The notes under the pieces: model-generated
Told to the model about the DNA's origin: nothing
Databases searched by the model: none
Seen by the model: the letters and a program-made list of their open reading frames with translations, nothing else
In this document: positions 8,341 through 31,256 of the stretch, one piece after another
Layout of the letters: every line of letters begins with the position of its first letter
How positions within the stretch are numbered: the stretch's first letter is position 1
NCBI RefSeq assembly: GCF_000007185.1
Contig: NC_003551.1
Location: 990,001 to 1,022,000, forward strand
From: Methanopyrus kandleri AV19
GTDB taxonomy: Archaea; JAADCQ01; Methanopyri; Methanopyrales; Methanopyraceae
Direction of reading: 5' to 3'
DNA length: 32,000 bases
Translations under genes and position numbers: made by a program

Positions 8341-9299
8341 ACCGGTAGGTAAGAGAGCCCGAGGAACGTCAGCAGAAGGAAGAACAATCCCGCGATCCCG
8401 ACGGTCCCGATGAAAGGTATCGGTATCCCTAGGGGGGGTGATGGACCCTCCCCGCTCTCCACACCGTTCAGTGGTCTCCGCGTCTCGACGTCTCCCGTCA
8501 CCGGTGCGTCGCAGCGGATCCGGGTCACACCGCCGAGGTCCAGGAACGGTTTGGAAACCGCGACGGCGACGGGGTACCCCTCCAGAGCGGCCTTCCACAA
8601 CTCTTCCGTGAACGCCGCCAGGGAGTCACCGGGTAGGTCTGTCAACAGGACGACCGTGAGGGTACGACCGCGCTTAGAGGACACGATAACCGTCAGCGGG
8701 GAGATAGCGCCGGAGAGTACCGAGTACAACCTGTTCACGACCTCCACGGGCCCGAAGAACTCCAGGATACCGGGGTGAAGGTTGGAAAGGAAGAGATCGT
8801 AAGGGACCAGCAAAAGCTCCCCCACGTCGCTCGTGGACTCGTCGTCCACGACGAAGTAGCGACGAGATCCCTCTTGGACGGCCCCGAGGACGAGTACCGC
8901 GTGGTACACCGAGGGACGGTTCAACAACGAGACCACGGCTACCTCGAACACTTTCGAGGCCGCATCCGAGCCCGCGATCGCCTGGAAGGCGTCGATGATG
9001 TCGAGGTTATCGTCGTCGTGTTCCCCCGTAGCCGAAATCTCGTACTGAAGTGGGGTCACGGGATCGCCGTTCCACCATCCCATGGCGACACCCAAGTTGT
9101 ACATGTCCACCGCGCACGCCTCCGCGCACCAGATCCTGTCAACGCGCCCATCTCCGTCGATATCGGACCCGAAAGAGGTGTTCGGAGCGTCGAACTCCGG
9201 GTCTAAGTAGTAATGACCGGAGACGAACCCTCCCACTCGACCGTGAGCGGGCGTCATCGCGATGGATACCGCGATTATCAGCACGAGGGCGGGCAACAT
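8337..9299 (-). CDS. Secreted, C-terminally membrane-anchored protein of unknown function
   Basis: 320 aa. It has an N-terminal signal peptide (MLPALVLIIAVSIAMTPAHG), a DxDxDG-like motif (SDIDGDGRVD) and a C-terminal PIPF plus TM segment (IGTVGIAGLFFLLLTFLGL). The ATG lies 6 nt after the cbiT stop. Its stop overlaps the lhr stop in a CTAG palindrome. Confidence 0.6.
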   Translation of the reverse strand: MLPALVLIIAVSIAMTPAHGRVGGFVSGHYYLDPEFDAPNTSFGSDIDGDGRVDRIWCAEACAVDMYNLGVAMGWWNGDPVTPLQYEISATGEHDDDNLDIIDAFQAIAGSDAASKVFEVAVVSLLNRPSVYHAVLVLGAVQEGSRRYFVVDDESTSDVGELLLVPYDLFLSNLHPGILEFFGPVEVVNRLYSVLSGAISPLTVIVSSKRGRTLTVVLLTDLPGDSLAAFTEELWKAALEGYPVAVAVSKPFLDLGGVTRIRCDAPVTGDVETRRPLNGVESGEGPSPPLGIPIPFIGTVGIAGLFFLLLTFLGLSYLPV

Positions 9300-9305
9300 T
9301 CGGGT

Positions 9306-9872
9306 TCACCTCTCGGGCTCGAAGAGCGCCAGGTAGGACGTTCTCATCCCCGAGAACAGCGTCCCCCGCCGGAGGACCTTCCCTTCTCCCCACACCATGC
9401 ATAGGCAGGATCGTCTCCAGCCGTCGAGCGCCTTGACCGCCGTGGCGAAGGTCTCGGGTGTGACGGCGTTTAGCAGTATCGCGCGTCGCACGCGCTCGGC
9501 GAGGGCGAGGAGTACCTCTTCCAGCCGCTCGGAACCGGACACGACGGCGGCGTCCACCTCGTCCACGTCCTCCAGGGCCTCGGGGGCCCACCCGCGCACT
9601 ATCTCTATGCGATCCTCCAGGCAGAAGTCCCGGACGTTCCGCTCCAACGATCGGAACGCTTCCTTGTCTCCTTCCACCGCGTACACGCGGCCGAGAGGCC
9701 CTACCGCCCGGGCCAGCTCTAGGGTTAGCGAGCCCGATCCCGCACCGATCTCGAGGATCCTCTCGCCCGGTCGCGGTCGAAGTACGGCCAGCACCGTCGC
9801 TTTCATCACCGGCTTGGTGGGGCCTGGAACACCCTCTGTGACCAAGTCGGAGGGGTCTACGACATTGAACAC
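9306..9872 (-). CDS. cbiT: Cobalt-precorrin-6B C15-methyltransferase (decarboxylating), CbiT
   Basis: It carries the SAM motif ILEIGAGSGSLTLELA, and GVPGPTK near the N-terminus as in CbiT. Starting at GTG 9872 gives 188 aa, which matches the known CbiT length and N-terminal spacing. The ORF-track extension to 10037 is antisense to cbiL. Confidence 0.85.
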   Translation of the reverse strand: MFNVVDPSDLVTEGVPGPTKPVMKATVLAVLRPRPGERILEIGAGSGSLTLELARAVGPLGRVYAVEGDKEAFRSLERNVRDFCLEDRIEIVRGWAPEALEDVDEVDAAVVSGSERLEEVLLALAERVRRAILLNAVTPETFATAVKALDGWRRSCLCMVWGEGKVLRRGTLFSGMRTSYLALFEPER

Positions 9873-10558: not shown

Positions 10559-13081
10559 GTGACTACCCGGGAGGTTCGGGGGCGAGGGTTGCTCCGTACA
10601 GTGTGGGTAGATTACGCCAGGAAAGGCGAACCCGATGTCATCTTAGTCGGTCGGCGGGAGGACGGGAACCCAGCTGCCCTCGTCGTTAAGGGGTTTCGTC
10701 CCTACTTCTACGCGGAGGTGGAGGACGGGTTCGATCCGTCCGAGGTGGAGCGTCTGAGCGGTGTGGTGGAGGTCGAAGAAGTCCTGTTGGAGCACCCCTA
10801 CGGCGGCGACCGGGTGGAGCTCCTACGGATCGTCGCCACGTACCCCAAGGTCGTCCCCAAACTGCGCGAGCAGGTCAAGAAGCTGGACGGCGTGAAGGAG
10901 GTCTACGAGGCGGACATCCCCTTCGTGCGCCGTGCCGCCGTCGACCTCAACTTGCCGCCGGCGTCCGAGGTCGACGTCTCCGACCTGGACACGGGGTCCT
11001 GGTCCGGACTTCCCGCGTACTTCGCGGACGTCGAGGACGCCCGTGAGTTGGACCACCGCCCCTACCCGATCGAGGACCTCGTCGTCGCCAGCTTCGACCT
11101 CGAGGTGCTGGCGGAACCCGGAACGACGATCAAGGGAGCCTCGGGCCCCATCATCGCCATCAGCTTCGCGTACAGTACGCCTGACGGGGAGCGCCGTAAC
11201 TACGTGATTACCTGGAAAGGAGAGGACGAGTCGTTCGAAGTGGACGGGGTGGAAACCGAGGTCATCGTGTGTAGGTCGGAAGCCGCCGCGCTGCGGAGGT
11301 TCTTCGACGAGTTCCGCCGCGTTGATCCCGACGTGGTGTTCACATACAACGGGGACGAGTTCGACCTGCCGTACCTGCAACACCGGGCCGGGAAGCTGGG
11401 TATCGACGTCTCGCCCCTGGCGCGGCCGGCGGGCAAGCGTGGGATCATACTGAAGCACGGGGGCGGCCGTTATGCCTCCGATATTTTCGGACGGGCCCAC
11501 GTCGACCTGTACCACACGGCGAGGAAGAACCTCAAGCTGGAACGCTTCACGCTCGAGGAGGCCGTCAAGGACGTGCTCGGTGTAGAGAAGGAGGAGATGG
11601 AGCTAGCCGACATCAACGAGGCCTGGAAGCGCGGTAATCTGGACGAACTGATGAGGTACTCGGCTGAGGATGCCCACTACACCTTAGAGTTGGGGCTCGA
11701 GCTGGCGCAGGTCGAGTTGGAGCTCTCCTACCTGACACGGCTGCCGCTGCCGGATGCGACCCGCTTCAGCTTCGGACAGCTCGCGGAGTGGAGGGCCATC
11801 TACAAGGCGCGCCAGGAGGACATCCTGGTACCGAACAAACCGACTCGAGATGAGTACAAGCGGCGGCGTCGCAAGGCGTACAAGGGCGCGATAGTGTTCG
11901 AGCCCGAGATAGGGCTCCACGAGAACGTGGTCTGCGTGGACTTCGCCAGCCTGTACCCCAACGTGATGGTCGCGCACAATATCTCGCCCGACACGTTCGA
12001 CTGCGACTGTTGTCCGCGTGTGACCGTCGAGGAGGTGGACGACCCCACGGACGCGACCGTGGCACCGGACGTGGGCCACAAGTTCTGCAAGCGGCGTAAG
12101 GGGTTCTTCCCCCGGCTCGTAGAGGGACTCATCGAACGCCGGCGTGAGCTCAAGCGCCGCCTCCGGAAGCTCGATACCGAGTCGCATCCTCACGAGGCTA
12201 AGATCCTCGACGTACGACAGCAGGCGTACAAGGTCCTGGCCAACAGCTACTACGGTTACATGGGCTGGGCTAACGCGCGCTGGTTCTGCCGCGAGTGTGC
12301 CGAGAGTGTTACCGCTTGGGGTCGCTACTACATCAGCGAGGTTCGAAGGATCGCGGAGGAGAAGTACGGGTTGAAGGTCGTGTACGGGGACACCGACTCG
12401 CTGTTCGTGAAGCTGCCCGACGCGGACTTGGAGGAAACCATCGAGCGGGTGAAGGAGTTCCTGAAAGAGGTCAACGGCCGCCTCCCCGTGGAACTAGAGC
12501 TGGAGGACGCCTACAAGAGGATCCTGTTCGTGACCAAGAAGAAGTACGCCGGGTACACCGAGGACGGGAAGATCGTTACGAAAGGTCTGGAGGTGGTCCG
12601 ACGGGATTGGGCGCCTATCGCCAGGGAGACGCAGCGTCGAGTCTTGAAGCGGATCCTAGCCGACAACGACCCGGAGGCGGCGCTGAAGGAGATCCATGAG
12701 GTCCTCGAGAGGCTGAAGTCGGGCGACGTCGACATCGACGAGCTCGCGGTCACGTCCCAGCTCACGAAGAAGCCCTCGGAGTACGTTCAGAAGGGTCCCC
12801 ACGTCAGGGCCGCGCTACGGCTCGCTCGACACCTCGGAGTGGAGCCCGAACCGGGTACCATCGTGAGGTACGTCATCGTCCGCGGTCCCGGTAGCGTCAG
12901 CGACAAGGCGTACCCGGTGGAACTGGTGCGGGAAGAGGGGAAAGAGCCCGACGTCGATTACTACATCGAGCACCAGATACTACCGGCCGTGGAGCGGATC
13001 ATGCGGGCGATAGGTTATTCCCGCGGGCAGATCGTCGGTGAGACGGCCTCACAGAAGACGCTGGATCAGTTCTTCGGCTGA
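10559..13081 (+). CDS. polB: Family B DNA polymerase (PolB)
   Basis: 840 aa. Exonuclease motifs are FDLEV, YNGDEFDLPYL and YSAEDAHYT. Polymerase motifs are DFASLYPNVMVAHNISPDT, KVLANSYYGYMG and YGDTDS. No intein is present. The start is ambiguous: GTG 10559, or TTG 10589 after a TTTTTA box at 10549-10554. Confidence 0.95.
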   Translation: MTTREVRGRGLLRTVWVDYARKGEPDVILVGRREDGNPAALVVKGFRPYFYAEVEDGFDPSEVERLSGVVEVEEVLLEHPYGGDRVELLRIVATYPKVVPKLREQVKKLDGVKEVYEADIPFVRRAAVDLNLPPASEVDVSDLDTGSWSGLPAYFADVEDARELDHRPYPIEDLVVASFDLEVLAEPGTTIKGASGPIIAISFAYSTPDGERRNYVITWKGEDESFEVDGVETEVIVCRSEAAALRRFFDEFRRVDPDVVFTYNGDEFDLPYLQHRAGKLGIDVSPLARPAGKRGIILKHGGGRYASDIFGRAHVDLYHTARKNLKLERFTLEEAVKDVLGVEKEEMELADINEAWKRGNLDELMRYSAEDAHYTLELGLELAQVELELSYLTRLPLPDATRFSFGQLAEWRAIYKARQEDILVPNKPTRDEYKRRRRKAYKGAIVFEPEIGLHENVVCVDFASLYPNVMVAHNISPDTFDCDCCPRVTVEEVDDPTDATVAPDVGHKFCKRRKGFFPRLVEGLIERRRELKRRLRKLDTESHPHEAKILDVRQQAYKVLANSYYGYMGWANARWFCRECAESVTAWGRYYISEVRRIAEEKYGLKVVYGDTDSLFVKLPDADLEETIERVKEFLKEVNGRLPVELELEDAYKRILFVTKKKYAGYTEDGKIVTKGLEVVRRDWAPIARETQRRVLKRILADNDPEAALKEIHEVLERLKSGDVDIDELAVTSQLTKKPSEYVQKGPHVRAALRLARHLGVEPEPGTIVRYVIVRGPGSVSDKAYPVELVREEGKEPDVDYYIEHQILPAVERIMRAIGYSRGQIVGETASQKTLDQFFG

Positions 13082-13104: not shown

Positions 13105-13803
13105 GTGATCGGTGATCGGCTTCACCCTGGCCGACCGTGGGTGTTCTCCTTGCGAGTGGCCATCCTGGACGGGTACACGGATGAGCCGGCGGGTCTAGGT
13201 GTACCACCCTACCTCGGGACCCACCCCCGGTACGCCTACGGCGCGGCCCGGGCCGCGGGAGCCACTGAGGTGCGGTACGTGCCCGTCGAGCGGGTGAGGT
13301 CGGGCGACGTCGACCTGAACCGCTTCGACGTCGTGGTGGGCATCTGCGGGGTGCACACGCCGGGGAAGTACCTCGGCGCCCGGCCGGCGGACCTCTCCGA
13401 GATGCTCCGTATCCTCAGTGAGGTCGACGCCGTCACGGTCCTAGGTGGGCCGGCGGCTCAGTCCGGACACGGTCGGGTCGGCGGTGAGCTACCCGAGACC
13501 GAAGTCGAGGGTGTGGACGTGATCGCCCGGGGCGACGTCGAGGCCGTGGTGTACGACCTCGTTTCCGAGGGCTCGCCCGAAGCCGTCGACCCCGACCGGA
13601 GGCGATCGATCGAGGAGCTCCGGGAGTACTCCGTGAAGGGAGCACCCGCGGCCCGCGAGCACGTGGACTACCCCGATGCCGTGATCGCGGAGTTGGAGAC
13701 CTACCGAGGTTGCCCCCGTTTCCTGTCCGGTGGGTGCTCGTTCTGCACCGAGGTCCCTAGGTACGGCGAGCCCGGAGTTCAGACCGCCGGAGGACGTCGT
13801 TGA
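13105..13803 (+). CDS. Radical SAM protein (archaeal family with C-terminal HhH), N-terminal segment up to the Fe-S cysteine motif; frame broken
   Basis: The N-terminal flavodoxin/B12-like domain (VAILDGYTDEPAGLGVPPYLG) is followed by YRGCPRFLSGGCSFCTEVPRYGEP. The sequence then degenerates (GVQTAGGRR) and stops. Confidence 0.7.
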   Translation: MIGDRLHPGRPWVFSLRVAILDGYTDEPAGLGVPPYLGTHPRYAYGAARAAGATEVRYVPVERVRSGDVDLNRFDVVVGICGVHTPGKYLGARPADLSEMLRILSEVDAVTVLGGPAAQSGHGRVGGELPETEVEGVDVIARGDVEAVVYDLVSEGSPEAVDPDRRRSIEELREYSVKGAPAAREHVDYPDAVIAELETYRGCPRFLSGGCSFCTEVPRYGEPGVQTAGGRR

Positions 13804-14791
13804 GGAGGTGAAAGCGCTGTACAAGGTAGGTGTCCGCAGGTTCCGGGTCGGACGACAACCTTGCGTGTTCTCCTACATGGCCGAGGGGATCGGGGAGACC
13901 GAGCGACCCCGGCCGAACCCCGAGGCGGTGGAGAAGCTCTTCCGGGGGATCTGCACGGTCGCCCCCGACCTCGTGACGCTCCACGTGGACAACGCGAACC
14001 CGGCGGTGATCGCGGAGCATCCCGTCGAATCCCGGGAGATCGCGAAGGTGTTGGTCCGTTACGGCACCCCCGGCAACGTCGTGGCCTTCGGCGTCGAGAC
14101 CTTCGACGAGCGGGTGGCGAGGAAGAACAACCTGAACGTGGAGTCCAAGGAGGAGGTCTTCCGGGCCATCGAGGTGGTGGCCTCCGTAGGCGGGTACCGC
14201 GGCTGGAACGGGATGCCGTATCTCCTGCCGGGGCTCAACTTCGTGTGCGGTCTCATCGGTGAGAACAGGGAGCGTTACCGTCGCGACGAGGAGGTCCTTC
14301 GGGAGCTGGTGGAACGTGGTCTTCGGGTGCGCCGGATCAACGTCAGGAACGTCGTACCCTTCCCGGGCACAGAGATGGGGGAACACGGTACGAAGTGGCT
14401 CGAACGCAACAGGGAACGGGTGGCCGCGTTCAAGCGCTTCGTCCGGGAAGAGGTGGATCCCGTCCTGCTCCGCCGGGTGCTACCGAAGGGCACCGTCCTG
14501 AGGCGCCTCCGGGTGGAACCCAGAGAACCGGAGTTCGCGCGGCAGGTGGGCTCTTACCCCGTGGCCTGCAGACTACTCGCCGAGCGGGAACCCGGTGAGT
14601 GGGTCGACGGCCTGGTGGTAGGTCACGGGGCTCGTTCCGTCGAGGTGATCCCGCTGCCGGTACGGCGGGAGGACGGTCCGGACGTCCTCGCCAAGCTACC
14701 CGGGGTCGGTAAGAAGGAGGCTCTGGATGCCTTCCTCAAGGGCCGAAGGCCGCGGGTCCCCTATGCCCTGCGGTCCTGGTTCGCGTTCTGA
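13775..14791 (+). CDS. Radical SAM protein, C-terminal segment (continuation in the +1 frame) ending in an HhH motif
   Basis: Frame 2 resumes exactly where expected after the Cys motif (EFRPPEDVVEEVKALYKVGVRRFRVG...). It continues through the TIM-barrel part and a C-terminal LAKLPGVGKKEALDAF HhH. The ORF-track start is 13730. Confidence 0.7.
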   Translation, partial: EFRPPEDVVEEVKALYKVGVRRFRVGRQPCVFSYMAEGIGETERPRPNPEAVEKLFRGICTVAPDLVTLHVDNANPAVIAEHPVESREIAKVLVRYGTPGNVVAFGVETFDERVARKNNLNVESKEEVFRAIEVVASVGGYRGWNGMPYLLPGLNFVCGLIGENRERYRRDEEVLRELVERGLRVRRINVRNVVPFPGTEMGEHGTKWLERNRERVAAFKRFVREEVDPVLLRRVLPKGTVLRRLRVEPREPEFARQVGSYPVACRLLAEREPGEWVDGLVVGHGARSVEVIPLPVRREDGPDVLAKLPGVGKKEALDAFLKGRRPRVPYALRSWFAF

Positions 14792-14792
14792 A

Positions 14793-17700
14793 TCACCAGT
14801 TCCACCTACGGAACTGCCGCCGCGCCCAAAGGACCACGATCATCGACGCGGCCAGTAACCCCACTACCCACTCCCAGATAACCCTAGGCGCGGGAGCACT
14901 CTCCCGGACCATTGCCCTCGCCTCGGACTCCTTCGCGGCCTCCGACTTCAAGGGGACGGCTCGACAGCCGGATCCCGAAGTACCTCCCGTCGAGATCGCT
15001 CCTCCGACCGGTAGGCGACCGTGGAAGATCACCCCGGTCGTAGACACCAGCTCCGACGCCCTCGACACCGACCCCGAGGGGAGGTTACCCACCTCGAGGT
15101 TGTTCGCTCGAGGCGATTCTACGAATTCTACCGCCCGTAAGGATCGAGGGGAAACGGATCGTGGTTCTACCGCGCGGTAGGATGCCCTGCTTCTGGTGAC
15201 GATCATCCTGATCATTTCCGCGACTACCTTGGGGTTGTCCAGCGTACGGTACGCCCGAACGATATCGGGGAGCATCTTCAGGACGTCGTTGAGACCCAGG
15301 GACGCCGCCAGGTTCCGGACGAACGGCACCGTGGACGGGTTCAGGCTCGTGTGGTGGCACGTGGAGGGACCGTACCGTGCCGTGACTTCCGCCCAGGCCC
15401 TGACTAGGGCCTTGAGGGTGTTCCGGTCCGGCTTCCACAGACCCACACGCACCGCCTCCACGAGCCACGAGAGCGTCGACTGTACCTCGGCCCAACCCTT
15501 CGGGGTCGACGGTCGGTAGCGTTCGAGCGCCGACAGTATCGTCGACGCCACCTCGGTCAGCAACGTCTGAACCATCGGTCTGACCTGGGTCGTCGTCACC
15601 GCGATGCCGACGATGTTCTGCACGCGCTTCATCACCTCGTGCCATCCCACGTCCGGTCCGTGGGCCATCAGTGCCTCCCACCAGCTCGGGCTCAGCAGTT
15701 CCGTCCGCACCTCGATCGCCAGCCGCTCCGCCAGGGTTTGTACGTGCGCGGTGGTCGGATCGCGGGCCACCGTCAGGAACACTAGTGGCTCCTTCTTCCT
15801 GATCAACCGCACGTACGTCACCATCCCGCCGATCCAGGAGTAGTAGTCGTTCACGTCGATCACGTTGAACGCGTTCACCACCTGATCTATCACCGCGTCC
15901 ACGGTGCTCGCGAGGTACCGGAAGACCTTCACGGCCTTAACTGCGGCCTCGTACCCAGTCAGCTCCTCTCGAAGCAGCTTGGAGCCGTTCGGGTTACCCG
16001 TGACGGTGAAGGCGTACGCCACCCTGGACTCGAAGATTTCCGCGATCTTCTCCGAGAACCGCGCGTCGACGGTCCCCGCGCCGTCGATCCCCAGGCCCTT
16101 CGTGAGCTCGGACCAGCCCAGCTCCACCAGACGGTTGACACCGGTTCCCTGGATATCGCCCGGTGGCTCCCCGAACACCCCGGTGGCCGCCAGCGGCTCC
16201 GGTACCCCGAGCTTTAGGAGCTCGAGATAGTGCTTCCTACGGTGGTTGTACGCGAGGGGCTCCTCCGCGTCGGAGGCGAGCCGGAAGGCGGCGGCCAGCA
16301 GTTGGACCACCGGCTCGATGGAGTCCAGGACGGCCGTGCAGAGCGCTACCACGTCGATCCTCGGTCGGTTGATCCACCGGTTACCGACCTTCACCTTCAG
16401 CTCGTCCAGCGGGATCAGCTCCACTCCCAGAACTTTGCCGCTGTTCGGGTCCCAGACGGGCTTGACGCCTAGGAGGTACAAGACCTGTGCTATTCCTAAC
16501 CCGCCGGACGTCAGCTCGTGTGATGCGAAGAGCACGATGGGAACGGTCTCGGGCCACCTACCGTATACGCGGTAGTATCGGGCCAGGAAGTCGTCCATGA
16601 GACGCTTAGCGACCTCCCAGGCTTCTGGAGTGGGAAGGGTATACGGGTCGAACGGTACGCCGTTCCGTCCGGTGGGATAGGCCTTGGGGTTCCACAGGGG
16701 CTCCCCGAACCCTCCGGTCGGGACGTGCCCGCCCCTCAGGAAGTTGACGAGATTGTCCAGCTCGTACTCACCGGATTCGTACACGTGAACGAACTCTCTA
16801 AAGGCCTCGGCTATAAGCTTAATAATGTCCTGATCGTACTGATTCGTGACCTCCCATAGACCTATTTTTAACAACGACTGTCGGTACAATCCTAACAAAT
16901 TGAGCTTAAATCGTTGCAGTATGGTGTCCGCTTTTGAGAGCAGTGACGCGTCGTCTCGTAGCTCACCTTCGTCCTTGAGCTCGACCCACTGGAGTAAAAC
17001 CGACCGCAGGTAGGGGTCGTTCCAGATTTCGTGGAGCATCGAGCGGAGCAGCTCGTACGTCCGGATCTTGACATCCTGGTAGAAGTCGGGGTTCTCGTCC
17101 GCTAACCTGCGGAACAGCTCCAGGTCGGCCTTGGGGGTTAACCCCGTCGTGACCGCCAAGTAGGGGGCGAACCGCGGTGCGAAGAGCAACGCCGCCTCCT
17201 CTACAGCGAGCTCGACCGGGAGGTCCTCACCGATGACGTGCAGACCGTAGAACGATTTCTCGTCTCGGAGCGCCAGCAGGTAATCGTGCAGGGCGTCGAG
17301 GAACTCCTCCAGGTGTCGCTCGGCCCAGGACTCGGGATCCTCCGGAGGGCTCTCCCCACGCTCGGCGAAGATGGACTTCACGACGTCCTCGAGGATCCCC
17401 AGCTCCCTCGCCTTCTTCAGGATCTTCTCCGCGATAACCTTCCGTACGGCCGGATCGCCGCCGTATATCGAGGAGCTCACGTACTGCGACCACAACCGCT
17501 CCAGCTCCGCGTATTTGCGAAAGTCCTTGAAATACCCGGATGGAGGGGACGGATACGTCAGGATCACGGCCCCGCCCCGGTACTTCGCCAGCGTCCCTTC
17601 ACCCGGGTTGCTCACAATGTAGAAGTACGCCTGGGGGACGTCCGGGAGCAGCAAGTGCGTCCAGTCCGTGACCGTGAGTCCGCGGTCGTGGCCCGGTAGG

Positions 17701-19529
17701 AACTCGAAGGTGCCGTGCGTGCCCACGTAAACCACCGCGTCCGCGTGGAAGACCCTGCGCAACCACTCGTACGCGGCGATGTACTGCCAATGCGGGGGCA
17801 ACTCCCTGGAGTGGTAGACGGCTTCCGGGCTCCCCGACCAACCACGCACCGGCTGCAGGACCACCGCCACGTTGCCGAACCTGAGGGCGGGGACGAGGTA
17901 CCGGCGACCGTCCGTCATGATCCCTCGGTTGTCGGTCACGTCCCCCCAGGTCCTCCGGAAACCCTCGATCATACCCTCCACGGCGGCTCTGACCGCCTCG
18001 GGATCCAGCTCACGGACGAGGTCGAGGTACGCGTGCAGCCGCCTCACGACGTCCTCCTCGAACCATTCCCGGACGTTTTCGGCCGGAATCAGTTGGTCCC
18101 GGGAGATCGAGCATAGCACGAAGGAGCGACCGTCGACGCTGACCGTGACCTTCCCATCGCGCACCTCGATCTCGACCTCGCGTCCGTCGACGTTCAGCGA
18201 CCACTCGCCGTACCCGCCCTCGTACAGGTCGAACATCCGTCGAAGTTCGCCCTTCGCCCATGGTCCGACGTTCGCGAGCAGGAGCACCGACCGACGCGGG
18301 TCGTGGGGGTCTACCGCGGAGGACATCGCGTTGAACACGGCGACGAACACGTCCTCGAGCGTTCGAGCCTCCCGTGGATCCTCTCGGTACGCGCGGTAGA
18401 GCTCCCGGAAGAACTCCGTCCCGGGGCCCAGGTCGAACCCCTCACCGGCCAGCCTGGCCAGGATCCGCGCGAGGCTCCTGGGGACGTCCAGGTACGCCGC
18501 TCCCAGCTCCGCGCGTCCCGGCGGGTAGCAGTACACGACGAGCGCGACCCTCTTCTCCCGGTCCGGCAACAGCCTGAGTCGGAGTATGTGGTCGACCAGT
18601 CTCCCGAGATCGTCCAGTGTCCCGGGTAGCAGCACGGGCTCGTCGTCCTTCCCGTTCAACCACAGCACCCGGTACCAGAAGGATCCTTCCCGTTCGGAGC
18701 CCAACTGTACCTGATAGGTCCATTCGAGTGAGGGCCCTGCTCGATTCGTCGCGTACTCTCCCAGGCCCATGCTGGCGTCTCCGGTGAAGGGGAACACCAC
18801 CTGGATGACCGGCGTGTTTAGCCTGATGACGACGTACTCGGCCGGTTTCGGGAAGTTCAGCGTGAACGCCCGGACGCTGATTAAGGCCTCCACGCGCTTG
18901 TGCTGCCTTTCCAGCCCGGAAAGTACTTCTACGGGCTTCACGAACGACGATTCGCAGAAGACCGCGACGGTCCGAACGCCGTATCTGCTTGTGACGTCGT
19001 CTAGCGCCTCCGTGAGTCGCAGTACGGCGTCCCTGCGCGGTCCTACGGCGTCGATCCCGTGGGCGAGTACCAGGACGAGGTCATTGGGAAGCCTGGACGC
19101 GAACGCGCTCAGGTCCATTCCACGCAGGACGTCGACAGCCCAGCTCGGTAGCTTCTGGCGGAACCCGAAGAGTACCACGGTCCCTTCGGTCTCTCCGCGG
19201 GCCAAGCGTCGGAGCCAATCTCGGAAGGAGGCGGTGTCGAAGTGTGGGATTCCCCCGATCCATCCGGTCCCCGGGATGTAGGCCGAGAGAGCCGTTCTAA
19301 CGATCGTTCTAGGAGGTTCCACGGCATCCGTCGGGAAGGAGGGGTCGGCCAGCCATAGTAGGAACGTCACGAGAGCGCGCGTGTCCCCCGCCGTCAGACA
19401 CAGCCAGATATGCGCCGCGACGGCCACCTTGGCCTTCACGGGCCGACCGCGGATAACCACCAGCGCGCGCTCCGGATCCGATGTGGCCACCACGACCACG
19501 CGCTTCGTCGAGGCGAGGGCTTCGGCCAA
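14793..19529 (-). CDS. cobN: CobN / Mg-chelatase H family giant protein with a C-terminal membrane anchor
   Basis: 1578 aa. CobN signatures are KRVALVVYCYPPGRAELGAAYLDVPRSLARILARLAGEGFDLG, FLRGGHVPTGGFGEPLWNPKAYPTGRNGVPFDPYTLPT, VLFASHELTSGGLGIAQVLYLLGVKPVWD and RPRIDVVALCTAV. The C-terminus is a TM segment plus basic tail (WVVGLLAASMIVVLWARRQFRRWNW). The only start is a weak TTG at 19529. Confidence 0.85.
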   Translation of the reverse strand: MAEALASTKRVVVVATSDPERALVVIRGRPVKAKVAVAAHIWLCLTAGDTRALVTFLLWLADPSFPTDAVEPPRTIVRTALSAYIPGTGWIGGIPHFDTASFRDWLRRLARGETEGTVVLFGFRQKLPSWAVDVLRGMDLSAFASRLPNDLVLVLAHGIDAVGPRRDAVLRLTEALDDVTSRYGVRTVAVFCESSFVKPVEVLSGLERQHKRVEALISVRAFTLNFPKPAEYVVIRLNTPVIQVVFPFTGDASMGLGEYATNRAGPSLEWTYQVQLGSEREGSFWYRVLWLNGKDDEPVLLPGTLDDLGRLVDHILRLRLLPDREKRVALVVYCYPPGRAELGAAYLDVPRSLARILARLAGEGFDLGPGTEFFRELYRAYREDPREARTLEDVFVAVFNAMSSAVDPHDPRRSVLLLANVGPWAKGELRRMFDLYEGGYGEWSLNVDGREVEIEVRDGKVTVSVDGRSFVLCSISRDQLIPAENVREWFEEDVVRRLHAYLDLVRELDPEAVRAAVEGMIEGFRRTWGDVTDNRGIMTDGRRYLVPALRFGNVAVVLQPVRGWSGSPEAVYHSRELPPHWQYIAAYEWLRRVFHADAVVYVGTHGTFEFLPGHDRGLTVTDWTHLLLPDVPQAYFYIVSNPGEGTLAKYRGGAVILTYPSPPSGYFKDFRKYAELERLWSQYVSSSIYGGDPAVRKVIAEKILKKARELGILEDVVKSIFAERGESPPEDPESWAERHLEEFLDALHDYLLALRDEKSFYGLHVIGEDLPVELAVEEAALLFAPRFAPYLAVTTGLTPKADLELFRRLADENPDFYQDVKIRTYELLRSMLHEIWNDPYLRSVLLQWVELKDEGELRDDASLLSKADTILQRFKLNLLGLYRQSLLKIGLWEVTNQYDQDIIKLIAEAFREFVHVYESGEYELDNLVNFLRGGHVPTGGFGEPLWNPKAYPTGRNGVPFDPYTLPTPEAWEVAKRLMDDFLARYYRVYGRWPETVPIVLFASHELTSGGLGIAQVLYLLGVKPVWDPNSGKVLGVELIPLDELKVKVGNRWINRPRIDVVALCTAVLDSIEPVVQLLAAAFRLASDAEEPLAYNHRRKHYLELLKLGVPEPLAATGVFGEPPGDIQGTGVNRLVELGWSELTKGLGIDGAGTVDARFSEKIAEIFESRVAYAFTVTGNPNGSKLLREELTGYEAAVKAVKVFRYLASTVDAVIDQVVNAFNVIDVNDYYSWIGGMVTYVRLIRKKEPLVFLTVARDPTTAHVQTLAERLAIEVRTELLSPSWWEALMAHGPDVGWHEVMKRVQNIVGIAVTTTQVRPMVQTLLTEVASTILSALERYRPSTPKGWAEVQSTLSWLVEAVRVGLWKPDRNTLKALVRAWAEVTARYGPSTCHHTSLNPSTVPFVRNLAASLGLNDVLKMLPDIVRAYRTLDNPKVVAEMIRMIVTRSRASYRAVEPRSVSPRSLRAVEFVESPRANNLEVGNLPSGSVSRASELVSTTGVIFHGRLPVGGAISTGGTSGSGCRAVPLKSEAAKESEARAMVRESAPAPRVIWEWVVGLLAASMIVVLWARRQFRRWNW

Positions 19530-19533
19530 TGCG

Positions 19534-19875
19534 TCAATTATCGTCCAAGGCAGTCCCGAGGGTCCTCCGGGACAGTTCTCGGGTGAAAGCCGTTGGGACC
19601 GTCCCCATACGCTGGATCACCAACACGTCGGCGGATCGGACGTCCCTCGAGATACCGTCCCAGTCCAAGTTCCCTATGCTCGTGGGATCCTTCGGGATCC
19701 GATGAACGTGTACGGGGATCCCTAACTCCCGGCCTACCTCTTCGGCGTTCGGCAGCGGTGTGGTGCTCAACACGGTGATCTCGACGGCGGAGGCGGAATC
19801 GGAACTTAAAATTTGGATTAACACAACCATTGTAAGAAGTAACACAACTGACGTACGTCGTAAGTGTTTTAACAT
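19534..19875 (-). CDS. Signal-peptide protein resembling the extreme N-terminal beta/alpha units of CobN. It is probably the detached 5' part of the cobN-like gene.
   Basis: ATG 19875 gives MLKHLRRTSVVLLLTMVVLIQILSSDSASA (a Sec-type signal). This is followed by VEITVLSTT...ADVLVIQRMGTVPTAF, which matches the start of the CobN N-terminal domain. The ORF stops 4 nt before the cobN-like ORF, which is in the +1 frame. Confidence 0.55.
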   Translation of the reverse strand: MLKHLRRTSVVLLLTMVVLIQILSSDSASAVEITVLSTTPLPNAEEVGRELGIPVHVHRIPKDPTSIGNLDWDGISRDVRSADVLVIQRMGTVPTAFTRELSRRTLGTALDDN

Positions 19876-19919: not shown

Positions 19920-20029
19920 AGTTTCGGTGGGGGTGAGTCGGTCTGCGCGCGATACCTGTGGCGGCCCTGATCGTCGCCCTTACCGACGTCCGCGTGGGCG
20001 GCTGACTGGGGGAGATCATCGACAAGTCA

Positions 20030-20881
20030 GTGAGGTTTTACTTCGCAGTCGATAAGGCCAGGGAGCGTGGTGTGCCTATCAAGGAGTTCAAGCTGATTCA
20101 GGAGGACGGTTCAGTGTACTGGGAAGGCAAGTTCGGGAGATCTAAGTGGGAGACATCGGGTGAGGTAATTTACGGCAATATGGTAGCTCTATCCGGGATA
20201 TATCTAGGGTTACTCAGCGGCGAGGTGAAACCGAAGACATGGCCCGAACCAGAACGATCCCGATTCGAGAAAGGCATTACCGTCGGACTCGCTCGGATCC
20301 TGTCACTCCAGCAGGAAGATGGTGGCTGGGGATGGAAAGTAGTCCTAGTGGAAGGCAAGACCAGGTTTCCAGCCGGCAAGGGCCATGTCCTGTACACGGC
20401 GAAGATACTCGCTAAAGTGTTGATCCCGGCGCTGCGGTTGAACATTAAGAACGTGAGCTACGGCGGGACCACCTACGACGTCGCCGAACACGCGCGTGCG
20501 GCGGTGAGGTTTCTCATCGACCAGCAGTTGGAGAGCGGTGGATACAGCGCCAACAAGGAGTGGTCGATGACCGAGGACCCGCTCTACACGGCGTGGGCCC
20601 TACGTGCGCTGTGCGAGGCGTACCGGTACAGGGACCTACTGGGGCTCGACGACGCGACCGTCCAGCAGGTCAAAGAGGCGATCCGTAGGGCGGTCGACTG
20701 GTTACTCTCGCACCAGGAGGACGAAGGTGACTACGCCGGGCTATGGGAGATGAAGTCCGCAGCGATCATGGGATCCGCGTACGCCCCACCGTCGGAGGCT
20801 CAAATCGTACGTGCACTTATCCAGGCATACTCGATCTCGGAGGAATTAGGGTTGAACAAGGCCGAGCTCAAGGAGGCATAG
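20030..20881 (+). CDS. Alpha/alpha-toroid protein with prenyltransferase / terpene-cyclase-type repeats, N-terminal segment; frame broken
   Basis: Repeated QW-like motifs are present: RILSLQQEDGGWGW (Q94 at 20309), VRFLIDQQLESGGYS and VDWLLSHQEDEGDYAG. It ends ...NKAELKEA then TAG. No N-terminal signal peptide is present. Confidence 0.6.
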   Translation: MRFYFAVDKARERGVPIKEFKLIQEDGSVYWEGKFGRSKWETSGEVIYGNMVALSGIYLGLLSGEVKPKTWPEPERSRFEKGITVGLARILSLQQEDGGWGWKVVLVEGKTRFPAGKGHVLYTAKILAKVLIPALRLNIKNVSYGGTTYDVAEHARAAVRFLIDQQLESGGYSANKEWSMTEDPLYTAWALRALCEAYRYRDLLGLDDATVQQVKEAIRRAVDWLLSHQEDEGDYAGLWEMKSAAIMGSAYAPPSEAQIVRALIQAYSISEELGLNKAELKEA

Positions 20882-21384
20882 ATCGGGCGCTGGAGGCGAT
20901 CGTGGACTGGGCGCTGAAGTACCAGGATGCCTCGCTGGTGGAGTTCGACGGTCGGAAGGTGCTCGGCTGGGCCTACTCGTCGACACGCCTGGAGAGTTGC
21001 GGTCCGTACCTCGGGTACACCGCCCTCATAGCCGCCACGCTGAAGCTGGCGCAGGAGCTGGGCCTAGGGTCGAAAGCCGTCGAGAAGATGAGGTCCGTCG
21101 GAGTGACCTTAGAGGATGAGGCGGAGTGGGTGGCTCACGAGTGGCAAGAGATCGACGGACTCGGGTACTTCCTGTACCCGAACTCCAAGGCCGAGCACAA
21201 AACGGTGACACCGTCGAGCCAGCTCTACGGACTGACCTGTGCGGTGGCGTTCTCGCACCCAGAGGTGCTGTTGAAGCGCACTACGGCGGACGTTTGGAAG
21301 CTGGTGCCTAAGAAGGGAGCGTGGAAAGTTCCAGTGTGGCCGGTGGTCACGGTGGTGCTGCTATTCGCGTGCCGACGCCGCTAA
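20878..21384 (+). CDS. Alpha/alpha-toroid protein, C-terminal segment (continuation in the -1 frame) with a C-terminal anchor
   Basis: The segment reads IDRALEAIVDWALKYQDASL..., continuing the repeat pattern (compare KEAIRRAVDWLLSHQ upstream). It ends in KVPVWPVVTVVLLFACRRR. The ORF-track start at 20743 is an out-of-frame extension. Confidence 0.6.
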   Translation: MDRALEAIVDWALKYQDASLVEFDGRKVLGWAYSSTRLESCGPYLGYTALIAATLKLAQELGLGSKAVEKMRSVGVTLEDEAEWVAHEWQEIDGLGYFLYPNSKAEHKTVTPSSQLYGLTCAVAFSHPEVLLKRTTADVWKLVPKKGAWKVPVWPVVTVVLLFACRRR

Positions 21385-21400
21385 CCCGTTTTCTGTCCTC

Positions 21401-21422
21401 ACGGATACTCTTTCGTATCCGT
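21401..21422 (+). terminator. Perfect 8-bp hairpin (ACGGATAC-TCTTTC-GTATCCGT) flanked by pyrimidine/T-rich tracts after the toroid gene
   Basis: It lies 17 nt after the TAA at 21382-21384. It is preceded by GTTTTCTGTCCTC and followed by TCTTCTCT. Confidence 0.4.
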
Positions 21423-21515
21423 TCTTCTCTGAGGTGGCGGGTGAAAGTACTCACAACTAATTCACGACTTCTTCCAACCAGTGTAGAAATTTCGTTGACA
21501 AAAACTCGGTTCCAC

Positions 21516-21526
21516 TTTAATTTAAA
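21516..21526 (+). promoter_or_regulatory. TATA box (TTTAATTTAAA) with Shine-Dalgarno GGGGGTGA (21552-21559) for the CbiX-like gene
   Basis: This strong AT-rich box lies about 40-50 nt upstream of GTG 21565. A 7-bp stem (AGCCGCC..GGCGGCT, 21526-21549) lies between the box and the SD. Confidence 0.4.
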
Positions 21527-21564
21527 GCCGCCGGCCATGTGGGGCGGCTGTAGGGGGTGAGACC

Positions 21565-23082
21565 GTGAGGTTCCCGGCGCTGGTCATCGGGCTACTCGTT
21601 GCACTGGGTCCGACCGCAGCCAGTGAAAGTCCCAAGGTTGCCGTAGTGATGCCGTACCACGGCAGTTACGATCCGCACTGGATCTACATGGCCCACGAAC
21701 TCCCTGAGAAAGTCCAAGAGATACTGAGCGTAACCTATGACGAATACAATATTCAAGTGTATCCAGGCAGTTTCGAAACCTACGACGTGACCAAGGTGCG
21801 ACTTCAGGGCGGTAAGGAGTACGTCATCCATCAGGAAGAGGTGAACACGGGCGAGGAAGTCCTAAAGACCGAACTCGGGCACGCCCTCAAGGAGGCCGAA
21901 GAGTTCACGAACTCCGGTAGGGACGGTCTGATCGTCGTGCTACCGGCCTTCGTGAACCGAGGAGGTCAGCACCAGTGCGTGGAGATCCCGGAAGTTATCG
22001 ACATCATCTTGGGCGATAAGGTGCCCAAGTACTCGGTCCACTACGAGCCGTTCGGTATTACAAACTGGGACCGCCAGAACGACATCGGTATCGTACCGGA
22101 GCTGCTCTTCAGGAACATACAGACGGAGGCTGAGAAGACACTGACAGGACCGAACGGTCAAGGTGATCCCGAAGACGTGTTCTCGGCGTACAAGGATAAG
22201 AGACTCCTGGACTTCCTGGTGGACCACAAGGACGAGGTCGGTCTCCTCGAGATCATGTTCGGCACCCTGCGGGTGGGTTACTGGGACGACTTCAAGGCGA
22301 ACGCTATGTACGTACTACGTGGTGTCGCCGAGAGACTCGGTAACCTCCTGGGGACGACGATCCCGGTCGGTGAGGTCGACTGGGCGCTGGAGAACCCGTT
22401 CGTGAGGGAGGGTAAGGCGTACTTCTTCGCGTTCCAGAACCCGGAGATCGGTCCAGAGAACTGGGAGAAGTCACGCTGGGAGGTCCGATACGAGCAGTTC
22501 CAGAAGCTGATGCAGAGTCTCTGCAGGCAGGGCGTCAGGTACGTGGTCGCATTCCCGTACATCACGGTGACCGGTATCACGGACCGCAAGCTGTTCGAAG
22601 GCAACCCGGAGCACGGTCCCGAAGGTGACGAGCCCGAGGCTTACGACTATCCGGAAGCCATTCTGCGGCATTTCGGTGCGGAGTTAGTGGCGGAGACCGT
22701 AGCCGACGTCAGGAAGTACACGTACGTGCAGGAGGGTCAGGAGAAAACCCGGACGGTGTACATCAACGCTCGGATCTACCGGATCCCGAAGGAGAAACTG
22801 GGCACGGACGCCGACATGTACGTGATCTACGTGAGACGCGGGCTGTTGGACGCTCCGAACGCGACGGAGAAGGTGGCGCGGGTGTACGCCAACTACATCG
22901 CCACTCACCTGCCGACGTGGTTGATGGAGTACGAGGCGGTGAAGGGGATGAAGGAGGGGTTCGAGGGCGAGATTAACTCGCTGAGGAAGGATGTCAAGAG
23001 CCTCAAGAAGAGGAAGGTCGCGGTGTATCCGGCGGTAATCGCGCTGGCGCTGGCGATGATCCCGCCGCTCCGGCGCCGCTAA
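21565..23082 (+). CDS. CbiX/CbiK-like (class II chelatase fold) protein with an N-terminal signal peptide and a C-terminal anchor
   Basis: 505 aa. The signal peptide is MRFPALVIGLLVALGPTAAS. VAVVMPYHGS (H32 at 21658) and LIVVLPAFVNRGGQHQCVEIPEVI resemble the CbiX HGS and PlfL-G-H-DIP motifs. A second lobe reads RYVVAFPYITVTG. The C-terminus is KVAVYPAVIALALAMIPPLRRR. Confidence 0.5.
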   Translation: MRFPALVIGLLVALGPTAASESPKVAVVMPYHGSYDPHWIYMAHELPEKVQEILSVTYDEYNIQVYPGSFETYDVTKVRLQGGKEYVIHQEEVNTGEEVLKTELGHALKEAEEFTNSGRDGLIVVLPAFVNRGGQHQCVEIPEVIDIILGDKVPKYSVHYEPFGITNWDRQNDIGIVPELLFRNIQTEAEKTLTGPNGQGDPEDVFSAYKDKRLLDFLVDHKDEVGLLEIMFGTLRVGYWDDFKANAMYVLRGVAERLGNLLGTTIPVGEVDWALENPFVREGKAYFFAFQNPEIGPENWEKSRWEVRYEQFQKLMQSLCRQGVRYVVAFPYITVTGITDRKLFEGNPEHGPEGDEPEAYDYPEAILRHFGAELVAETVADVRKYTYVQEGQEKTRTVYINARIYRIPKEKLGTDADMYVIYVRRGLLDAPNATEKVARVYANYIATHLPTWLMEYEAVKGMKEGFEGEINSLRKDVKSLKKRKVAVYPAVIALALAMIPPLRRR

Positions 23083-23983: not shown

Positions 23984-25405
23984 GTGAACGTGTTGAAGCG
24001 GGTTATAGTTGTCGGAGCCGGCAGTGCGGGACGGTCGGTGGCGCGGCTGCTGAACCACGTGGGGTACGACGTCGTGATCAACGACATCCGCGATTGGGAG
24101 GACTTCACCACGGAGGAGCGCGAGTATCTGGAGGTTCTCGAGCGCGAGGGCGTCGAGGTGGCCCTCGGGGGACACGATCGGGAGCTCTTCGAGTCGGCCG
24201 ACGCGGCCTTCGTGTCCCCGGCGATCCCCGAGGACGCCGAGGGTAGGAAGCTCGCGGAGCTGGTCCCCGAGGAGATCACCGTCGAGGACGTTGCCGGGCT
24301 GTTGGGAGACCTGTTCCCCGTACCCGCCATCGGGATCACAGGAACGAACGGGAAGACCACCACGACCTGGGCGGTGGCGCATCTCCTGGAGGCCTGCGGG
24401 TACGAGGTCTGGCGGTGCTCGTCCCTCGACAGGCACCTCGTCATCGAGGCGATAGTGGACGGCGTGGTGACGGGTGAGATCGAGGGCTACGACGTGGCCG
24501 TCGTGGAGCTCCCACACGGGACGATCAGACTGGCGGCCGGTATCGAGCTGGACGTCGGGGTGCTGACGAACGTCTCACCGGAGCACTTGGACGAGTTCGG
24601 CGGTTCCTTCGAGCGGTACGTTCGTCGGAAACTCACGATAACTGAAATGAGTGAAGTGCTGGTGGCCGGCTACGACTGCGAGGAGCTGCGGAAGCGCCTG
24701 AACGACGCGGTCTGGTACTCCGTGCGGGATCCCGACGCCGACTACTACGGACGTAGGGAGAACGGACGTCTCGTGGTGAAGGGACCCGACGCCTCGGTGG
24801 AAGCCGACTTCCACCTGATCGGTTACTACGTAGAGAACTGCACGGGAGCCGTCGCCGCCTGTCTAGAGTTCGGCGCCGATCCCGAGGGGGTCGCCGAGGG
24901 TCTCGCCACGTTCGAGGGCGTTCCCGGGCGCATGGAGCTGCTGGGGGAGTTCTCGGGTCGTGTAGCCTACATCGACGCGGCACACAATCCGGACGGTCTG
25001 AAGGCGTCGCTTCCACCGTTCCGGGAGCTCGCGGACGAACGGGGCGGAAGACTGCTCGTCAGCGTGGACAATCCCGACACCGTGACCGAGCGCGACAAGT
25101 TCGAGTTCGGGCGGATAGTAGGGGAGTACGCCGATTTCGTGGCGGCCAGCGGGTACAACGAGACCCTGGAGCGGCTCGACCGGTCGGCCGCCGAGGAGGT
25201 AGTGAAGGGCGCCGAGTCGGCGGGTTGCGAGGGGGTGGCCGTAGACTCGGTCCGGGAGGCTGCCGAGGAGGTGGCCGCACGGTCCGAGGAGGGAGACGTG
25301 TTGCTCCACGTGGGGCCGGGGGTGGTGAACGCGTACGATCGGGTCAAGCGCGCCTTCCTGCGCGGTCTGACCTCGGTGCTGGGGGAACCTTCGGATGAAG
25401 CATGA
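23984..25405 (+). CDS. Mur ligase family protein, MurD-like (candidate pseudomurein peptide ligase)
   Basis: 473 aa. It has an N-terminal Rossmann segment VIVVGAGSAGRSVARLL, the ATP-binding motif GITGTNGKTTTT, and central and C-terminal Mur ligase domain patterns (DAAHNPDGL). The start could be 23984, 23990 or 23993. Confidence 0.85.
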   Translation: MNVLKRVIVVGAGSAGRSVARLLNHVGYDVVINDIRDWEDFTTEEREYLEVLEREGVEVALGGHDRELFESADAAFVSPAIPEDAEGRKLAELVPEEITVEDVAGLLGDLFPVPAIGITGTNGKTTTTWAVAHLLEACGYEVWRCSSLDRHLVIEAIVDGVVTGEIEGYDVAVVELPHGTIRLAAGIELDVGVLTNVSPEHLDEFGGSFERYVRRKLTITEMSEVLVAGYDCEELRKRLNDAVWYSVRDPDADYYGRRENGRLVVKGPDASVEADFHLIGYYVENCTGAVAACLEFGADPEGVAEGLATFEGVPGRMELLGEFSGRVAYIDAAHNPDGLKASLPPFRELADERGGRLLVSVDNPDTVTERDKFEFGRIVGEYADFVAASGYNETLERLDRSAAEEVVKGAESAGCEGVAVDSVREAAEEVAARSEEGDVLLHVGPGVVNAYDRVKRAFLRGLTSVLGEPSDEA

Positions 25406-30436: not shown

Positions 30437-30514
<78 letters not shown>

Positions 30515-30722: not shown

Positions 30723-31256
30723 TTGCCTAAGATCCCCGTCGGCTTAGGGTACAAGCTGGCGTACAAGGGCGCCAAATTGGGGCTTTGGAAGTGGGGAACC
30801 ACGGCGAAGACGGGGTTCTTCTCACTGATACTCCACTCCCTGATCTTCGGCCCCCTGGGTGTGGCGATCGTCATCGCCACGCTCTTCCACGAGTTAGGTC
30901 ACTACCTGGCGTGCAAACTGCTCGACGTTCCCGCGTCCCCGCCGGTGTTCCTCCCCCTCGGAGGCGCGTTCGTTCAGCACGGGTGGACGGATCCGGATAA
31001 AGAGGTGTTCATCGCGGCGGCGGGACCCTTCGGTGGGGCTCTAGCAGGAATCCCGCTCCTGGTAATCTATCCGAAAGCGGCCGTGTGGAACGGGCTGATA
31101 CAGCTGTTTAACCTGCTTCCCATACCGCCTCTGGACGGGAGTAAGGTACTGCGTGGGCTCTGGATGCCCAGTCCGACCGCGTGGATCGGCGTGGCGACGG
31201 CGGTACTCGCCGCAGCCCTCTCGCTGGTCGGTATCCTCATGGGTTTGCACGCGTAG
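30723..31256 (+). CDS. Peptidase M50 (site-2 protease-like) integral membrane metalloprotease
   Basis: 177 aa. It has HELGH within a TM helix (ATLFHELGHYLACKLL), the second motif FNLLPIPPLDGSKVL, and several hydrophobic segments. It starts at TTG after GGGGAG. Confidence 0.8.
   Translation: MPKIPVGLGYKLAYKGAKLGLWKWGTTAKTGFFSLILHSLIFGPLGVAIVIATLFHELGHYLACKLLDVPASPPVFLPLGGAFVQHGWTDPDKEVFIAAAGPFGGALAGIPLLVIYPKAAVWNGLIQLFNLLPIPPLDGSKVLRGLWMPSPTAWIGVATAVLAAALSLVGILMGLHA

Follow-up and report, generated by a model that had tools for sequence, protein, structure and literature searches.

Two adjacent genes in a 32-kb window of the Methanopyrus kandleri AV19 genome ("the window" here means this whole stretch of DNA) encode a toroid protein and a chelatase-like protein that end in the same kind of short C-terminal tail. 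The tail consists of a proline motif, a hydrophobic segment, and an arginine cluster that runs up to the stop codon. Comparison of related sequences indicates that it is certainly a selected, modular element. It is confined to Methanopyraceae, a family of hyperthermophilic methanogens whose cells have a pseudomurein wall, and judging from its motif, it is a new class that is absent from current catalogues and that we name P[V/I/L]xP-CTERM. Its minimal role is that of a stop-transfer anchor for proteins exported by the Sec pathway. The tail could also be a processed sorting signal that is read by a common factor, a reading to which we give an even chance and in which cleavage is argued by analogy; an unprocessed stop-transfer anchor is nearly as likely.

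Structure and conservation of the tail

The window is DNA of the AV19 type and is 99.99% identical to assembly GCA_013329715.1. Translation placed both tails exactly where the initial annotation of this DNA had put them (Table 1), and the layout that it described, the tripartite one of processed sorting signals, is present: the motif abuts the hydrophobic segment, and the arginine cluster stands at the very end. In a six-frame scan of the whole window, a C-terminal hydrophobic stretch followed by a basic cluster was found in only three open reading frames (ORFs), those of the toroid, chelatase-like, and CobN-like proteins, and V-x-V-[WYF]-P occurred beside such an ending only in tails 1 and 2.

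We compared 18 tails from about 10 Methanopyraceae genomes, carried by toroid proteins, chelatase-like proteins, and a 173-amino-acid protein described below. The loci compared include those of another M. kandleri strain (L011), Methanopyrus sp. KOL6 (L010), two metagenome-assembled genomes (MAGs; L007 and L142), and the most distant relative (L012, GCA_054003095.1). The tails share a consensus that starts with [P/A/S]-[V/I/L]-x-P, continues with 7 to 16 hydrophobic residues (median, 12), and finishes with RRR at the stop codon. The K-V-x-V-aromatic-P-x-V motif proposed in the initial annotation is present in both tails of the window, but it is a local, strain-specific version of this pattern. 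The hydrophobic segment that was taken for a single transmembrane helix is likewise there, but the helix itself is an assumption, because the stretch after the second proline is so short.

The basic cluster ends at the stop codon in every one of the 18 tails, as RRR or RRRR in 14 and as SRR, RRG, RRRH, or RRLGCR in the other 4, and a proline two to four residues ahead of the arginines is frequent. The median distance from the motif to the C terminus is 19.5 residues, and the median length of the uncharged span, with the motif counted in, is 17.5. Some toroid tails have hydrophobic segments of only 7 to 10 residues that contain a helix-breaking proline.

The tail is kept in orthologues of both proteins, a point on which the initial annotation had staked its proposal. 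Among 10 aligned chelatase-like orthologues (45 to 89% identity), V487, P489, and R505 never vary and R504 hardly does, whereas the 30 to 60 residues upstream of the tail are hypervariable in sequence and length, with linkers that are coiled-coil-like, Gln/Gly rich, or Lys/Gly rich. All eight toroid orthologues end in P-[V/I/L]-x-P, a hydrophobic segment, and RRR(R/H). A signal-peptide-like N terminus, called by a heuristic and inspection rather than by SignalP, is present on the chelatase-like, toroid, and 173-amino-acid proteins in all genomes, except that the one on the toroid protein is destroyed in the AV19-type window.

The 505-amino-acid chelatase-like protein has identical copies in M. 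kandleri assemblies, and its relatives all belong to Methanopyrus or Methanopyraceae. A profile search of 1.84 billion representative sequences recovered the family only in Methanopyraceae, as three clusters, and there are therefore no distant homologues with other tails for comparison. A search of genome contigs with chelatase-like relatives as the target gave three loci.

A third carrier and tail exchange between genes

The third carrier of the tail is an unrelated secreted protein of 173 amino acids that is encoded 7 kb from the chelatase-like gene in L012 (positions 9185 to 9706; also in L013 and L014). It has a signal peptide, two cysteine-containing repeats similar to DxNGDGLCD, a 35-residue Ser/Thr-rich linker, and a C terminus, GETPINPLVPVMALAALALIPTLRRG, that is followed directly by the stop codon. 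This tail reads TPINPLV...RRG, and the seven-residue match T-P-[V/I]-N-P-L-V is common to it and to the chelatase-like tail of L012. The codons of five of the six identical residues differ at the third base, which argues for selection on the peptide rather than recent copying of DNA. In a sister genome (L016 to L020; about 9096 to 9700 in L016), the 173-amino-acid gene is frameshifted, and its decayed tail is still readable. A homology search with the mature domain returned one truncated relative, the gene being a pseudogene in those genomes.

In strain L011, the tail-encoding ends of the toroid and chelatase-like genes are identical at 47 of 48 nucleotides (9758 to 9805 versus 11483 to 11530), and the identity stops at the stop codon. 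The same comparison in five other genomes gave 18 to 31 identical positions of 48. This is a gene conversion confined to the tail, by which the L011 toroid gene acquired the tail of the chelatase-like gene. The tails are thus functionally interchangeable modules.

We searched for further carriers in several ways. About 100 kb of Methanopyraceae DNA yielded three carrier families in total and at most two per genome. A 45-residue profile of the tail found no matches in a 5.8-billion-protein database at an expectation value (E) of ≤10, because held-out tails scored only 9 to 22 bits after bias correction, too low for a database of that size. A degenerate DNA pattern (P-V-x-P plus nine hydrophobic codons plus RRR-stop) recovered three known tails with no false hits in the loci studied. 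When it was applied to metagenome contigs, the matches listed covered 80 loci, a single one of which was in frame and was not a tail; the rest were random and mostly out of frame.

Processed signal or unprocessed anchor

The motif was not recognized in the initial annotation, and no catalogued sorting-domain model covers it. We scanned the full proteins and 14 isolated tails from the toroid, chelatase-like, and 173-amino-acid proteins against NCBIfam (including the TIGRFAMs sorting-domain models) and Pfam at E ≤ 10, with HMMER filters that may discard very weak matches. No PGF-, PEF-, PEP-, VPXXXP-, PIP-, or LPXTG-type model was reported, the PEP-CTERM models TIGR02595 and PF07589 did not match the tails, and Pfam returned nothing for the isolated tails. 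The part comprising the hydrophobic segment and RRR gave weak partial matches to CGP-, Synerg-, JDVT-, and MYXO-CTERM (7 to 20 bits versus cutoffs of 20 to 27; for CGP-CTERM, 11.6 to 12.1 bits versus 21), and none of these alignments covers the signature motif. The sole case above a cutoff was TIGR03382, at 16.1 to 16.3 bits versus 15.85, on two isolated orthologue peptides.

Several features of the sequence favor a common factor that reads the tail: an invariant motif beside freely varying linkers, recurrence on an unrelated protein, a short hydrophobic segment interrupted by proline, and a strictly terminal arginine cluster. A median of 12 hydrophobic residues is short for a permanent helix, and the domain, with its median of 19.5 residues, is close in length to the 20-residue CGP-CTERM of Thermococcales, which according to Haft is processed by an intramembrane protease of the CPBP/Rce1 type (bioRxiv 10.1101/2023.06.07.544157). 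Membrane-embedded enzymes cut signals whose motif lies directly against the hydrophobic segment, whereas LPXTG signals typically have a spacer; to judge from its sequence, the Methanopyrus tail fits the former description, also in its terminal arginine cluster, in the low-complexity or Ser/Thr linker ahead of it, and in its length (bioRxiv 10.1101/2023.06.07.544157).

If the tail is processed, the carriers, which have signal peptides, would be exported by the Sec pathway, and the hydrophobic segment and arginine cluster would then stop transfer, leaving the C terminus held in the cytoplasmic membrane and the protein on its outer face. At the outer boundary of the membrane, the proline motif would be read by a shared membrane-embedded factor. 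The analogy with PEP-CTERM/exosortase, PGF-CTERM/archaeosortase, and CGP-CTERM makes an endopeptidase or a transpeptidase the most plausible candidate, one that would cut off the helix and RRR so that the protein is left on a lipid or cell wall anchor. At this locus, the signal would tether the toroid protein and the class II chelatase-like protein, and the adjoining CobN-like protein would be exported and anchored by a different tail. We speculate, while regarding it as rather unlikely in its entirety, that Methanopyraceae have a sorting system of their own, in which P[V/I/L]xP-CTERM is cut by an intramembrane enzyme and the protein is moved to an archaeal lipid or to pseudomurein, displaying an extracytoplasmic complex for handling tetrapyrroles or corrinoids (the CobN-like and class II chelatase-like proteins and a toroid binding protein).

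The closest counterparts are PEP-CTERM/exosortase, PGF-CTERM/ArtA, VPXXXP-CTERM/ArtB, and PEF-CTERM/ArtC. Like the Methanopyrus tail, these are domains of about 20 residues in which a proline motif abuts a hydrophobic segment and a terminal arginine cluster follows, and they occur on proteins with signal peptides, in many cases after a low-complexity or Ser/Thr linker. They are also shared by unrelated proteins within a genome, which may hold for the Methanopyrus tail, seen on at most two families per genome. The Methanopyrus motif, however, is P-[V/I/L]-x-P and not PEP, PGF, PEF, or VPxxxP; compared with PEP-CTERM, its prolines stand one residue further apart and Glu is missing. PGF-CTERM also has tens of carriers per genome, versus three known carrier families here. 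CGP-CTERM resembles the tail in being very short, in being restricted to a single lineage, in its occurrence in hyperthermophilic euryarchaea, and in the weak similarity of its helix and arginine part, but its invariant Cys has no equivalent in Methanopyrus and the scores are far under the cutoff. The logic of motif, hydrophobic segment, and basic tail is shared with LPXTG/sortase, and the peptide-containing wall of M. kandleri (pseudomurein) could in principle accept proteins. No LPXTG-like pentapeptide is found in any of the tails, however, and their motif abuts the helix with no spacer.

Several observations weigh against a processed signal. Only three carrier families are known, and two of them are adjacent and swap tails by recombination, so that part of their similarity is due to common descent. 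A Ser/Thr linker followed by a C-terminal helix is also typical of archaeal anchors that are not processed (PMC3387779). Nearby secreted proteins of M. kandleri end in other C-terminal anchors, and the P-V-x-P tail is therefore one of several and not the general anchor of the organism. In the approximately 50 kb surrounding the locus (in a 1.7-Mb genome), no called gene matched an exosortase/archaeosortase, CPBP, or rhomboid Pfam family, and literature searches that paired Methanopyrus with archaeosortase or exosortase turned up no statement either way. The initial annotation had gone on to suggest a dedicated processing pathway. Because the CobN-like tail differs, no enzyme was found in that region, three carrier families are known from about 100 kb, other anchors lie nearby, and plain anchors are ordinary in archaea, such a pathway is one that we infer by analogy.

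Two protease genes of other kinds lie in the window. One encodes a Peptidase_M50 (site-2-protease-like) membrane protein of 177 amino acids (30723 to 31256, plus strand), 8 kb from the cluster, and the other is a signal peptidase I (S26)-like gene (1571 to 2038, minus strand) in the same syntenic block; we found nothing that links either to the tails. We set the M50-like peptidase aside as a processing enzyme, since it simply forms part of a long stretch of conserved gene order and since the helices that site-2 proteases normally cleave have the opposite orientation.

The strongest alternative, which we hold to be only a little less probable than a processed signal, is that the tail is an ordinary type I stop-transfer anchor that is never cut, with the hydrophobic segment in the membrane and RRR on the inside by the positive-inside rule. 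The proline motif would then be kept for structure, capping a helix or acting as a hinge at the interface, or helping the helices of the toroid, chelatase-like, and CobN subunits to pack with one another or with a transporter, and the similarity between the two genes would come from tail duplication and gene conversion, the latter of which is documented for this adjacent pair. C-terminal transmembrane anchors, often behind Ser/Thr-rich linkers, are the ordinary archaeal way to hold exported proteins after signal peptidase I processing. Sulfolobus oligopeptide-binding proteins, for example, share with the Methanopyrus carriers the signal-peptidase-I-type signal peptide, the flexible or Ser/Thr-rich linker, and a hydrophobic C-terminal segment whose cytoplasmic side is positively charged (PMC3387779). 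Plain anchors are carried by the partner CobN protein and by the protein encoded at 8337 to 9299, no sorting enzyme was seen in the region surveyed, and the uncharged span of the tail could just cross a membrane. Such anchors, however, are usually longer and have no signature motif across unrelated proteins, whereas the Methanopyrus motif is invariant and, in a distant relative, turns up again on an unrelated protein encoded 7 kb away, where it has been kept despite synonymous divergence. The 7- to 10-residue, proline-containing segments of some toroid proteins also speak against a plain anchor, as does RRR at the very last residues of most of the 18 tails, which is typical of sorting domains and lacking in the plain anchors seen in the same genomes.

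It is very improbable that the tail is a divergent member of a known signal (VPXXXP-CTERM/ArtB, PEP-CTERM/exosortase, PGF-CTERM/ArtA, PIP-CTERM, or CGP-CTERM) missed by the models. Several tails contain V-P-V-x-P, which resembles VPEP, the motif of PEP-CTERM, and VPXXXP, in both of which a proline likewise follows Val, and there are the weak CGP-CTERM matches to the helix and RRR. On the other side, the PGF-, PEF-, PEP-, VPXXXP-, and PIP-CTERM models were unreported even at the permissive threshold, the P-x-x-P spacing is unlike P-E-P and P-x-x-x-P, and NCBI names the chelatase-like orthologues "hypothetical protein." The motif also lacks the Cys that is required in the CGP/MYXO/JDVT/Synerg classes (bioRxiv 10.1101/2023.06.07.544157). 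Finally, a chance likeness of two generic hydrophobic C termini, which might be entertained for tails this short and low in complexity that profile searches cannot separate from a database-scale background, is effectively refuted by the conservation in orthologues, with motif positions invariant in 18 tails beside hypervariable linkers, a seven-residue match between unrelated proteins of one genome, and a layout limited to these ORFs in the window.

If the tail is a processed signal, the few C-terminal sorting signals of prokaryotes would be joined by one with a new class of motif. Its sequence would then help to find the cognate enzyme in an archaeon that branches deeply and has a pseudomurein wall; we know of nothing reported on how surface proteins are attached in such an organism. 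Even an unprocessed tail marks exported, membrane-tethered proteins that are now annotated as "hypothetical" and places the CobN, class II chelatase, and toroid trio outside the cytoplasm, where scavenging fits better than biosynthesis. Its practical reach is one small lineage and three carrier families so far.

The gene cluster and its neighborhood

TABLE 1 Coordinates of the tails and of the genes that carry them (positions in the window)
Feature	Position	Strand	Description
Tail 1, KVPVWPVVTVVLLFACRRR	21325–21381	+	Last fragment of toroid gene; by translation
Tail 1, parts	PVWP, 21331–21342; hydrophobic segment, 21343–21372; RRR, 21373–21381; stop, 21382–21384	+	
Tail 2, KVAVYPAVIALALAMIPPLRRR	23014–23079	+	Chelatase-like protein; by translation
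Tail 2, parts	AVYP, 23020–23031; hydrophobic segment, 23032–23070; RRR, 23071–23079; stop, 23080–23082	+	Hydrophobic segment with internal Pro-Pro
Chelatase-like gene	21565–23082	+	Intact, 505 amino acids, exported; Sec-type signal peptide at about 21565–21624; carries tail 2
Toroid gene	19958–21384	+	Disrupted; alpha/alpha-barrel, squalene-cyclase-like repeat; weak squalene-cyclase and TED matches
Toroid gene, parts	Signal-peptide region, 19958–20005; in-frame TGA, 20003–20005; fragments, 20030–20881 and 20902–21384; frameshift, ~20878	+	
CobN/Mg-chelatase-H-like gene	14793–19875	−	Split; PF02514 match, E = 3e-168
CobN-like gene, parts	N-terminal part, 19534–19875; remainder, 14793–19529; additional T, 19538	−	N-terminal 113 amino acids with signal peptide; remaining 1578 amino acids; +1 T
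CobN-like tail, RVIWEWVVGLLAASMIVVLWARRQFRRWNW	14796–14885	−	14793–14885 with stop included

The toroid gene is a single ORF of 474 to 520 amino acids with a signal peptide in six other genomes. Relative to L011, the window has a 5-nucleotide and a 1-nucleotide deletion (at about 19980 and 20007) that bring a TGA into the signal peptide and a further 1-nucleotide deletion at 20878, which leaves tail 1 on the final fragment of what is probably a pseudogene. We rejected the explanation that the split is an assembly artifact, since the same indels occur in other AV19-type assemblies (which may represent one strain) and other strains are intact. The CobN-like gene is a single ORF of 1696 to 1800 amino acids with a signal peptide in L007, L010, L011, and L142. 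To judge from these sequences, the cluster appears to be decaying in the AV19-type strain, with the chelatase-like gene still intact. The CobN-like gene is also split (1513 plus 266 amino acids) in the MAG locus L143.

The chelatase-like protein of the window has no significant family match; a CbiX Pfam match was found in its orthologue P0007. Its AlphaFold2 model has a mean predicted local distance difference test score of 83, and the best Foldseek matches are to Bacillus subtilis ferrochelatase (probability, 0.99 to 1.0; target template-modeling score, 0.5 to 0.6). The predicted structure therefore points to a class II chelatase (CbiX/HemH-like) fold. The CobN-like, toroid, and chelatase-fold proteins all bear signal peptides and C-terminal anchors, which places this "chelatase" trio outside the cytoplasm, where there is no adenosine triphosphate. 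The placement suggests that the trio binds or scavenges tetrapyrroles or corrinoids and does not take part in their biosynthesis.

The CobN-like tail had been described in the initial annotation as related to the other two, which did not hold up. It consists of IWEWV, 16 to 18 uncharged residues, and a basic/aromatic end. IWEWV and the helix, which is longer than in the other two tails, are kept in six orthologues, none of which has the P-V-x-P motif. We therefore rejected the CobN-like tail as an instance of the same signal.

The secreted proteins found in the roughly 100 kb searched are the three cluster proteins, the 173-amino-acid protein, and two others. One of the latter is a 320-amino-acid protein (8337 to 9299, minus strand) with a signal peptide and no Pfam or NCBIfam match; it ends in PSPPLGIPIPFIGTVGIAGLFFLLLTFLGLSYLPV before the stop codon, where GIPIPF (with Pro-Ile-Pro) leads into a long hydrophobic C-terminal stretch that has no terminal arginine cluster. 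The other is a DUF4114-containing protein about 8 kb upstream of the window (L021, 717 to 1739, minus strand), with a lipobox-like N terminus, MLTVFLLALLISPVGCSG, and the end NFNPLSVLPLILMPRGRNPWRS before the stop codon. From its x-N-P-L, short hydrophobic stretch, and arginine-rich end, this last tail may be a degenerate relative of the P[V/I/L]xP tail.

Relative to assemblies L001 and L002, which are otherwise identical to it, the window differs by a single C in homopolymers at 13771 and 23848, probably through errors in sequencing the reference. With its extra C at 13771, a 546-amino-acid radical SAM gene is split into ORFs at 13105 to 13803 and 13730 to 14791, and the difference at 23848 affects a 273-amino-acid enolase-superfamily-like gene. 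Just downstream of the cluster is a Mur-ligase-like gene (MurD-like N, Mur_ligase_M/C; 23984 to 25405, plus strand) that is presumably part of pseudomurein peptide synthesis. A tRNA-Thr (GGT) at 30437 to 30514 (plus strand) is 96% identical in the distant MAGs L007 and L008, in which the surrounding DNA is about 76% identical.

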